Source of the DNA: Escherichia coli
Lineage (GTDB): Bacteria; Pseudomonadota; Gammaproteobacteria; Enterobacterales; Enterobacteriaceae
Assembly (NCBI RefSeq): GCF_016026235.1
Contig: NZ_CP065613.1
Reading direction: 5' to 3' (one strand)
Length of the DNA: 64,000 nucleotides
Positions 9,001 through 11,364 of this stretch are shown here, one piece after another. A program made the position numbers. Every line of letters starts with the position of its first letter. The first letter of the stretch is position 1.

Positions 9001-11364
9001 CATCCGCTTTCATCGCAGCAGCCGGGTGTGCCTTAATCAGCACATCACCGTTCTGCGTTTCCGTGCGGTAGGTATAACCCTCAACATCGAGGGTTTCGCA
9101 GTGATGCCGGTATTCGGTGTAGGCTTCCACCAGCAACTCGAGTGCACGCGCATCAAGCTGAGAAATGATCCCTTCCGCATTCAGCTCTTCCGCCATTCGC
9201 CTGAACCAGTACTTTCCCTGCGCCCCTAAATGCTGCGGAATTTTAGGGAGACCTTTTTCGTCCTTTTTAGCGGTTTTTTTGGCGTCTTTAACGGGACGCT
9301 TTGAGGGATTGCCTCGTATCAAATGCAGGCGTGGCGGGGTTTTCGGGGGTCCTGACATAATCGATTTTACCTATCAATCGCTTGATCGCATTCCCAAAAA
9401 AAAGTTTTCGAACCTGCGGCGATGCGAGGAAGGGTTGGCGGGCGGTCCCGGACAGCCAGGGCTGCAGGGATTTGACCCGCCCCTCCCTACAAGTGAGAAT
9501 AATTATCACCTGATTCGTTCGCGCGCTGTTTTCGCTTTATGGCAGGGCCAGCACAGACTCTGCAGGTTGCTGTCTGCGTCTGTTCCGCCATGCGCTTTCG
9601 GGATGATGTGGTCGACGGTTTTCGCCTCGCTCACCACACCGACACGCAGACACAACTGACACAGACCTTTATCGCGCTTCAGAATACGGGCACGAATCAC
9701 CGTCCATTTTGAGCCATAGCCACGCTGGTGGCGGCTCAGTCCGCGCTGGTGCTGCACCCAGCCTTCACCGCGATGCTTATCGCAGTAACCCGAACTGTCT
9801 GTGGTTGTACCTGCACATCCACGCTTACGGCAGGCACGTGGGATTAGTGATGGCATAAATACCTCATACCCTGCGAAATGTTTACCACGATAAAAAGGCT
9901 ACTTAATGCACTGAGTGCGGATATACTCCTGTGCCCCTTCCAGTTGCATCTGCATCGTCATCAGCCGCTCTCTGAGGGTGAAATAATCCCGTTCAGCGGT
10001 GTCTGCCAGTCGGGGGCTGGTTGCATTATCCACGCCGGAGGCGGTGGTGGCTTCACGCACTGACTGACAGACTGCTTTGATGTGCAACCGACGACGACCA
10101 GCGGCAACATCAGCGCGCAGAGTTTCATTTTCAGCTTTCGCATCAGCTAACTCCTTCGTGTATTTAGCATCGAGTGCATTAACATCACGCTGTCTCTGCT
10201 GCATGTCAGTAATGGTTGCGTTCGCCAGCTTCAGTTCTCTTGCGTTTTTGTCGCGCTGCTCTTTGTAGGTAATGGCGTTATCACGGTAATGATTAACAGC
10301 CCATGACAGGCAGACGATGATGCAGATAACCAGAGCGGAGATAATCGCGGTGACTCTGCTCATTGCTGCCCCCACAAACAGACTTCACGCTCAATCTCAC
10401 GACGGGTCATCAGCCCTTTCCATTGCTTACCGCCAGCATATGGCCAGCGACGTAGCTGGTCACATGCGCCTTTGATATCGCCCTGGTTTATTTTGCGAAG
10501 AAGCATCGATGTTCTGAAATTGCCAGCGCCCACGTTGTAAACGAACGAGTAAAGAGCGCCGCGCGTTGTTTCCGGTATATCGACTTTGATGTACGGGTTA
10601 ATTTGTCTGGCGACAGTGGCAAGGTCTTTATTCAGGAGGGCTTTGCATTCTGCTTCGGTATACGTTTTACCGAGCATGATGTCTTTTCCGGTGTGTCCGT
10701 GGCATACAGTCCATACGCCAACGATATCTTTGTATGGTATGTAGCTGACACCTTCCAGACCATCGTTACCACCTGGGCCAGTGATGAGCACAGACGCTAT
10801 GGCAATAGCCCCACCACCAATAGCAACTGCAACAGCCTTGCGTAATGATGGCGACATTATTCACCTCTCGCAGCCTTACGCTTGTCTTCTCTGATTTTGA
10901 AGTACAGATTTGTCAGATAAGTCAGGAAGCCCAGAACCAGACTCCCCAGTACACCAATCGCAGCCCACTGTGACGGACTGACCTGATCAAGCCACTGTAA
11001 AAACCAGTAGCCAGCACTGCCTGCGGAGGTGCCGTAGGCAATGCCCGTTGAAATTTTGTCCATGGATTTCATAGCCTCACCTCCGCAAATAACGGATGGC
11101 GTAGTTTTACACTGAGAAATGAAAGGGATTTGAAAAGAAAAAACCGCAAAAGCGGGCGAAACGATATATACAGTAAGGAAAGCACTCTATCCAACAAACC
11201 ACTCACAGTTAATCGGAATAAAAGCAGAGTGCTTATGAATGATCGCCTGCCCGAAGGTTAGTATTTCTGCACAGCAATTTTGCAAAAAAAAGCGATCATT
11301 CATAACTTAAACGTCTTTCAGTCACTCCGGGATTTCCCATCATCGCAGACTGAAAGACTCTAAC

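Follow-up and report, generated by a model that had tools for sequence, protein, structure and literature searches.

A probable HK97/P27-type cos site between the HNH endonuclease and small terminase genes of a lambdoid prophage in Escherichia coli

The gap and its flanking genes

The stretch of Escherichia coli DNA analysed here (64,000 nucleotides, called the window below) carries on its minus strand a series of phage genes in the order antiterminator Q (11873-12562), four tRNA genes, P21-type holin, lysozyme, Rz and HNH endonuclease, followed across a gap by the small terminase gene terS, the large terminase pseudogene terL, the portal gene, an S78 prohead protease and an HK97-fold capsid. 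An initial annotation had placed a candidate cos/packaging site in this gap and had given its length as 147 bp. The gap indeed measures exactly 147 nt (9359-9505), both flanking ORFs lie on the minus strand, and the Pfam matches to Terminase_4 and HNH on its two sides, with TerL and portal coming after, confirmed the arrangement.

The HNH gene (9506..9856, minus strand) encodes a protein of 116 aa with an N-terminal zinc ribbon (Pfam HNH 1.6e-16) and is the final gene of the packaged genome, at its right end. Its DNA is 97% identical to gene L34 of phiP27, and its product can be aligned over the full length, including the zinc ribbon, with the GVE2 HNH nickase (GVE2 HNHE, 5H0M; E 1e-12). The small terminase gene (8876..9358, minus strand) is the first gene of the packaged genome, at its left end; its product of 160 aa belongs to the P27-family Terminase_4 (Pfam 1.8e-24) and is 19-24% identical to the TerS of P27 and SfV. 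BLASTP found no similarity between this TerS and HK97 gp1, and nothing below E 0.3 was found for it in the search of solved structures, so that no structural analogy with HK97 TerS can be drawn from sequence. The terL pseudogene (7118..8876, minus strand) presents TerL_ATPase and TerL_nuclease Pfam matches and ORFs of 146 aa and 434 aa; once repaired, the sole solved structure that it matches is HK97 TerL (6Z6D, E 1.1e-35). The portal gene (5830-6924, minus strand) carries an IS with a DDE transposase.

The gap was also described by the initial annotation as GC-rich, with short inverted repeats. The first description stands for an 80-nt core only (9411-9490, 70% GC) and fails for the gap as a whole, whose GC content is 52% vs 49% for the window: the gap is bipartite, and its terS side (9359-9410) has 35% GC and an A8 tract. 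The two motifs quoted as repeats are present, CCCGCCCCTCCC at 9476-9487 and GGCGGGCGGTCCCGG at 9437-9451, and are the complements of two conserved cos elements described below. As an inverted pair they did not survive: they share only the 6-nt complement GGCGGG/CCCGCC, a pairing that is not conserved among relatives, and the inverted-repeat search (seed 6, minimum length 7) reported no pair between them. The pairs that it did report are 82% complementary and involve bases that are not conserved or that belong to the coding sequence of terS. What makes the region significant is thus its homology to cos sites with known ends and its comparative conservation, which support the proposal of a packaging site, and not its base composition or any symmetry. 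When 9200-9700 was scanned against Rfam, no family was found in the gap. A SAM_alpha RNA match inside terS stayed below threshold (24.6 bits vs a gathering score of 36) and was taken as chance.

Position of the cohesive end

Three phages with defined ends allow the cut to be placed. For SfI, whose DNA is reported to be linear with a defined 10-nt cohesive end, unlike that of the pac phages Sf6 and SfX, the virion DNA ends were sequenced directly and showed a 10-nt gap, 5'-TGCCCGCCCC-3', relative to the prophage; the authors linearised the GenBank record so as to end with cos (PMC3636060). The terminal 10-mer of that record, TGCCCGCCCC, aligns to 9435-9444 of the window, and a gap rather than an overlap in both run-off reads would be the outcome expected of 3' overhangs. 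In a megablast against phage records, phiP27 was 98% identical to the window from 9437 into the HNH gene, and its annotated 10-bp 'cos-site' (CGCCCGCCCC on the gene strand) aligns to the same ten positions, with 8/10 bases matching and a GAC prefix common to both. The HK97 record ends with ...GACCGCCGCCAAA / ...ATGACCGCCGCCAAA and starts with GTTTGAATTT...; its position 1 corresponds to the published +1, since T16, the C:G pair 21 and the A:T run 24-29 of the published TerS site (PMC11331095) all fit. Because the ends of HK97 have 10-nt 3' overhangs (PMC9410871), its overhang is CGCCGCCAAA, and it follows GAC as in the window. The comparison with cos sites of related phages, which the initial annotation had recommended, therefore found the ends of SfI, phiP27 and HK97 all at the homologous position and none elsewhere.

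By alignment to these three ends, cosN of the window is predicted to yield the 10-nt 3'-protruding cohesive end CGCCCGCCAA (9435..9444, minus strand). The gene strand would be cut between 9435 and 9434, and the + strand would be nicked between 9444 and 9445, within a CGGT tetranucleotide.

The comparison was extended to about 280 related loci in all, drawn from three sets: 80 IMG/VR loci whose TerS shares at least 97% identity, 120 that contain the block CGCCGCAGGTTAGAAAACTTTTTT and 120 that have the GGTTCGAAAAC form. Two metagenomic viral contigs from different samples, L123 (IMGVR_UViG_3300022664_000035, TerS 57% identical to that of the window) and L137 (IMGVR_UViG_3300014071_000005, TerS 72% identical), end at the predicted +1; these are true contig ends, 13 nt upstream of the TerS block discussed below. 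In the 110 nt upstream of the block there is only one further contig end, and its position, 94 nt from the block, is unrelated. Since none of the 120 loci of the closest branch (the GGTTCGAAAAC form) ends at +1, these contig ends support the cut for the TerS lineage and not for the exact allele. A search for contigs that end at the right genome end, made with GGGTCAAATCCCTGACGGC, returned none that was informative.

The allele CGCCCGCCAA is found in 14/80 and 18/120 related loci, frequently on contigs around 40 kb long, and all GenBank phages with the TerS type of the window that were checked have CGCCGCCTGA instead. The end-mapped phages carry overhang alleles other than CGCCCGCCAA, and the cut is placed in the window by homology to them. 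The TerS of the phages with experimentally defined ends is 19-24% identical (P27, SfV/SfI) or unrelated (HK97) to that of the window, and the TerL of P27 is only 38% identical. A text search of the literature for the 10-mers found unrelated primer sequences only.

Elements around the cut and competing readings

Read on the gene strand, the site consists of GGGAGGGGCGGGTCAAATC (9487-9469), a 21-nt spacer (9448..9468), GAC, the overhang CGCCCGCCAA (9444-9435) and the cut, and after the cut of CCCTTCCTCGCAT, CGCCGCAGGTTCGAAAAC-T8 (9421-9396), a variable stretch and the terS start. Conservation was measured with an ungapped profile anchored at the cut, built from 162 distinct sequences of the TerS-identity and CGCCGCAGGTTAGAAAACTTTTTT sets together with phage records. 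In this profile the information content per position is 1.72 bits in the G[GT]AC motif, 1.84 over overhang bases one to seven and 1.26 over the last three, while the upstream element has a mean of 1.26 bits and the spacer, whose length is constant and whose sequence varies across lineages, a mean of 0.73.

The upstream element (9469..9487, minus strand) is a G-rich run followed by TCAAATC, and its end lies exactly 34 nt ahead of the top-strand cut. The same distance from TCAAATC to the cut is found in the window, in HK97, SfI and mEp235 and in Klebsiella and Morganella phages, with spacer sequences that differ, and the phages with this 34-nt spacing carry a TerS that is unrelated to or divergent from that of the window. 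Because the element and the GAC-CGCC core are shared with phages of unrelated TerS but homologous TerL and HNH, both are probably nuclease-side, and we consider the G-rich/TCAAATC element a candidate recognition element, either cosQ-like or read on the TerL/HNH side.

On the other side of the cut, CGCCGCAGGTTCGAAAAC and the T8 tract (9396..9421, minus strand, +14 to +39 from the cut) form a putative TerS site of cosB-like type. This block is invariant in 49/49 upstream variants of close relatives and persists, always 13 nt past the cut, with TerS homologues whose identity is as low as 56%; in the profile, its near-invariance at +14 to +38 is partly due to construction, as either TerS identity or the block itself had served to select the loci. 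The block is absent in P27, SfV and HK97, whose TerS differ, and other motifs replace it in P27/SfV/ST64B and in HK97. That it follows the TerS lineage and is replaced where TerS differs is the behaviour expected of a recognition site of the small terminase, and it is the likely candidate for one. In HK97 the TerS site extends from +15 to +29, with a specific G:C contact and an essential A:T tract (PMC11331095), and the block of the window, also downstream of the cut and with an A:T tract, may be its counterpart.

Closer to terS, the segment TATCAATCGCTTG (9372..9384, + strand) matches perfectly the IHF consensus WATCAANNNNTTR. It is one of four such matches in the window on both strands, is statistically unusual and is kept in 49/49 close variants while the N positions vary. 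Distant TerS relatives have lost it and present a GC palindrome instead. It could be a bending site for this host factor, but the lead is weak, since conservation stops at the close relatives.

A division of labour between HNH and TerL in HK97-type packaging has been proposed. Here the overhang has an invariant left border, AC then CG, in 160/162 distinct sequences, and its complement on the + strand is CGGT (9443..9446; ACCG on the gene strand), which would be nicked as CG^GT between 9444 and 9445. The nick site measured for the zinc-ribbon HNH nickases N.phiGamma and GVE2 HNH, to which the HNH protein of the window is related, is CG^GT (AC^CG) (PMC3592412), and the authors of the HK97 work raised the possibility that HNH and TerL share the nicks between them (PMC11331095). 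The HNH protein may thus make the CG^GT nick and TerL the other one; this assignment may not hold, because the HNH protein of HK97, gp74, was reported to be non-specific (PMC3592412). We also entertain a fuller reading, in which HNH cuts the fixed tetranucleotide, TerL cuts the other strand 10 nt off, the element at 34 bp is a cosQ-like signal for TerL/HNH and the overhang arose as a chimera, P27 on its left and phi467 on its right, through recombination inside cosN; as a whole this scheme is tentative, and possible rather than probable.

If the elements act as their likeness to other systems suggests, packaging in a replicating relative would begin with terminase finding cos on concatemeric DNA and with the binding of TerS, 14-39 bp inside the left end, to the lineage-specific block and T8 (9396-9421). 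A pair of staggered nicks, on the gene strand at 9435/9434 and on the other strand at 9444/9445 (CG^GT), would leave 10-nt 3' overhangs CGCCCGCCAA, the zinc-ribbon HNH making the CG^GT nick and TerL the second one. Packaging would then proceed leftwards from terS through the genome and end at the next cos; termination there would probably be aided by the G-rich/TCAAATC element, 34 bp ahead of the cut. In this course the attribution of strands to enzymes, the binding of TerS and the role of the upstream element are what we infer.

The known systems resemble the window to different extents. Phages of the P27/SfV/SfI/ST64B group (10-nt end xGCCCGCCCC) share its gene order and the position of HNH and terS, the first eight overhang bases (CGCCCGCC), the G-rich/TCAAATC element with its 34-nt spacing and a TerS that is also Terminase_4, and in phiP27 the HNH gene and the left cos half are 97% identical to those of the window. 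They differ in the last two bases of the overhang (CC vs AA in the window) and to the right of the cut, where the sequences are unrelated: P27, SfV and ST64B have a T-tract and AYACCCGCGAAA, whereas the window has CGCCGCAGGTTCGAAAAC-T8.

In HK97, cleavage of cos is stimulated by the HNH protein gp74. Like the window, this phage has the GAC|CGCC... left border, an overhang ending in AA(A), a G-run with ATCAAATC 34 nt upstream, a GC-containing motif and then a T-run downstream of the cut, a homologous TerL (E 1e-35) and the HNH partner gene at the right end. Unlike the window, its TerS (gp1) falls outside Terminase_4, without detectable sequence similarity to the TerS studied here, and its T-tract lies about 8 bp nearer to the cut. 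Its gp74 is devoid of the N-terminal zinc ribbon (PMC3592412), which the HNH protein of the window possesses.

The induced E. coli phages phi467, 689R5, 606R7, 640R1 and PhiR49_2, together with mEp235 (Hendrixvirinae), have the same TerS and TerL as the window; for phi467 the DNA identity of TerS is 96% and the repaired TerL is 99.8% identical. The right cos half of phi467-type phages is identical to that of the window, and this identity extends to both the TerS block and the match to the IHF consensus. Their overhang allele differs (CGCCGCCTGA, or CGCCGCCTAG in mEp235, after GTAC or GGAC), and in the HNH gene the identity falls to 87%.

The cos of lambda is organised as cosQ-cosN-cosB, with a 12-nt 5' overhang, the Nu1/gpA terminase and the IHF site I1. 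The logic is similar in the window, with an upstream element on the termination side, a nicking site, a downstream TerS site by the terminase genes and possibly IHF, but the polarity and length of the overhang differ, and the window has Terminase_4, an HK97-like TerL and an HNH partner, and no Nu1. The lambda cohesive end GGGCGGCGACCT found no match with at most one mismatch anywhere in the window, and this result and the Terminase_4 TerS speak against a lambda-type cos.

The homology to mapped ends, the position in the gene order, the fixed spacing and the contig ends lead us to conclude that the gap is very probably the cos site of a lambdoid prophage with a head and packaging module of HK97/P27 type. 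Within such a site the cut might still lie elsewhere in the gap, for instance at a second CGCCGC motif, CATCGCCGCAGG (~9411-9422), which resembles the overhang core and lies just before GGTTCGAAAAC; the record of the Providencia phage MW358929 starts at GGTTAGAAAAC. This record is, however, labelled circular and about 39 nt centred on the predicted cut are missing from it relative to its relatives, so that its first base does not represent a mapped end. A cut at 9434/9435 is what the ends of SfI and HK97 and the spacing of 34 nt indicate, and L123 and L137 both terminate 13 nt upstream of the second motif; a displaced cut is unlikely.

That the gap has no role in packaging and is an ordinary intergenic or regulatory spacer of a headful (pac) lineage, serving terS translation start, late-transcript read-through or an antisense promoter, seems highly improbable to us. 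It does include the ribosome-binding region of terS, and a weak promoter-like match, TTGACC-17-GAGAAT, lies at 9472-9500 on the + strand (9/12), but TTGACC is the complement of the conserved GGTCAA and a scan for terminators found none in the gap. Conservation at the non-coding positions is as strong as in the neighbouring genes, with 54% of invariant columns vs 20% in the HNH 3' part. A headful-type terminase, which the initial annotation had named as an observation that would overturn its proposal, is not what was found: TerL matches HK97 TerL alone among solved structures, relatives have defined cohesive ends at this place, and the TerL match and the defined ends of SfI contradict a pac site.

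Hardly credible, finally, is the reading of the gap as the gene of a small protein, to which one is led by a 73-aa ORF (9288-9509, minus strand), an open frame that spans the entire gap, and by the short hypothetical CDSs annotated over the homologous gap in ON470586, PV340570, PQ351753 and PP925830. The annotated CDSs are inconsistent between records in strand and position, and the 73-aa ORF overlaps terS out of frame. Homopolymer lengths also vary freely in close relatives (T7, T8, T9, and T14 in one locus; the G-runs too), which contradicts a coding frame because such variation would shift it.

Mosaic origin and state of the prophage

The two halves of the gap have different affinities. The right half and terS are 95-96% identical to the Stx phage phi467 and unrelated to P27, whereas the left half and the HNH gene are 97% identical to P27 and 87-92% to phi467. 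Judged by these alignments, the window carries a P27/phi467 chimeric cos allele, with an HNH-plus-left-cos cassette of P27 type; the site itself is a further instance of a well-understood kind of cos.

The terminase of this prophage is broken by a single 1-nt insertion: relative to phi467, terL has an extra G in a run at 8446-8451 (G6, where relatives have G5). Among the 80 related loci G6 recurs in one only (L010), and every other locus with a readable run has G5, including L017, whose cos sequence is identical to that of the window and whose G5 run is intact. The site is therefore intact in sequence but idle in cis, since terL is frameshifted and an IS sits in the portal gene; to judge from its bases, it looks functional but stranded in a prophage unable to make terminase or portal.

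For the window itself the result carries little weight, as it locates the genome termini of a decayed prophage and bears out what a textbook would lead one to infer. What is gained are the two ends of the would-be virion chromosome, placed to the single base, and a description of the architecture of this family of cos sites: upstream element, 21-nt spacer, G[GT]AC, 10-nt overhang, 13 nt and TerS block. This architecture can be used for annotating genome ends in prophages of such type in E. coli, Klebsiella, Morganella and Providencia, and for designing tests of strand-by-nuclease cutting. The prophage cannot package itself; its cos could in principle serve in trans a co-resident phage with the same terminase.

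The exact sequence of the window is absent from 5,426 complete E. coli genomes, whose best matches reach 96% for the packaging region and 98.9% for the 176-nt cos region, and the flanking chromosomal cobUST is 99.9% E. coli.

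Phage records at the predicted cut

In Escherichia phage CharmingMan (L092, PP925830), a 22-nt segment of the gap between the HNH gene and terS, which reads GCGCCAAAGGACCGCCGCCTAA in relatives, is present as its reverse complement. One boundary of this inversion coincides exactly with the predicted cut, which lies on the gene strand between window positions 9435 and 9434. The inverted segment most likely arose in assembly, at the physical ends of the genome; less likely, it is a true inversion of cosN, the predicted cohesive end. The 'circular' record of Providencia phage PSTRCR_117lys (L094/L095, MW358929) has a junction running from ...CCTACCACTCTCGCC straight into GGTTAGAAAAC. 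Compared with the related loci L103, L184 and L216, this junction is about 39 nt short, with about 20 nt missing from either flank of the predicted cut, as would be expected of a linear assembly with thinly covered physical ends.

Palindromes and lambda likeness around the cos core

An AT-rich near-palindrome, GTGATAATTATTCTCAC, lies directly 3' of the HNH stop codon in the window (9488-9505). At the homologous positions relatives present TGATA-N5-TATCA or AAATGA...TCATTT forms, HK97 and mEp235 present repeated TCAAATGAGAAT-like motifs, and the distance from the near-palindrome to the cut varies. On the other side of the core, the related loci of the GGTTAGAAAAC branch (L100-L219) carry a short GC palindrome 3' of the T-tract, at the place equivalent to window 9372-9395, and its halves covary within that branch (GGGGTCCCC, GGGGATCCCC, GGGGTACCCC and CCGGGATCCCCGG). 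The branch of the window has instead a match to the IHF consensus. The occurrence of one or the other at the same place suggests a second, lineage-specific protein site.

The lambda cohesive end is GGGCGGCGACCT. The cos core of the window (9435-9451; + strand TTGGCGGGCGGTCCCGG) becomes similar to it once one base is gapped, the two then agreeing as GGCGG(G)CG(G/A)(T/C)CC, and this likeness may reflect either descent of the nicking sites from a common ancestor or chance similarity of GC-rich sequence. Elsewhere in the window the cos core has a single near-match (13464-13477, with 2 mismatches), which is within chance expectation. It falls inside the gene of a 352-aa DUF968/HNHc_6 protein (12919-13977), located in the nin-like region upstream of the antiterminator gene Q; this protein is a second HNH-type nuclease of the prophage and has no link to packaging.

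Terminase frameshift and portal insertion

The frameshift in terL lies in a G-run (8446-8451) which is one G longer than in the Stx phage phi467 (G6 versus G5). With the exception of L010, every related locus with a readable terL run has G5. The G6 of the window may either mark a genuine pseudogene or stem from a sequencing error in the homopolymer. The head module is inactivated by an IS insertion: a DDE_Tnp_1 transposase ORF of 437 aa (4560-5873) adjoins and truncates the portal gene (5830-6924).

Region between Q and holin, and prophage extent

Four tRNA genes (Gly-tcc, Thr-tgt, Lys-ttt and Met-cat; 11365-11674) are found between Q and the holin gene. In phi467, the closest phage, the Shiga toxin genes sit between Q and the tRNA genes. 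In the window the tRNA cluster is separated by 198 nt from Q and by about 290 nt from the holin gene, which leaves no room for stx.

The chromosomal flank (26223-45990), with tRNA-Ser(cga), four tRNA-Asn(gtt) genes and an ORF of 2643 aa (27742-35673), resembles the E. coli asnT-asnV/yeeJ/cobUST region. The early region of the prophage reaches at least about 23 kb in the window.
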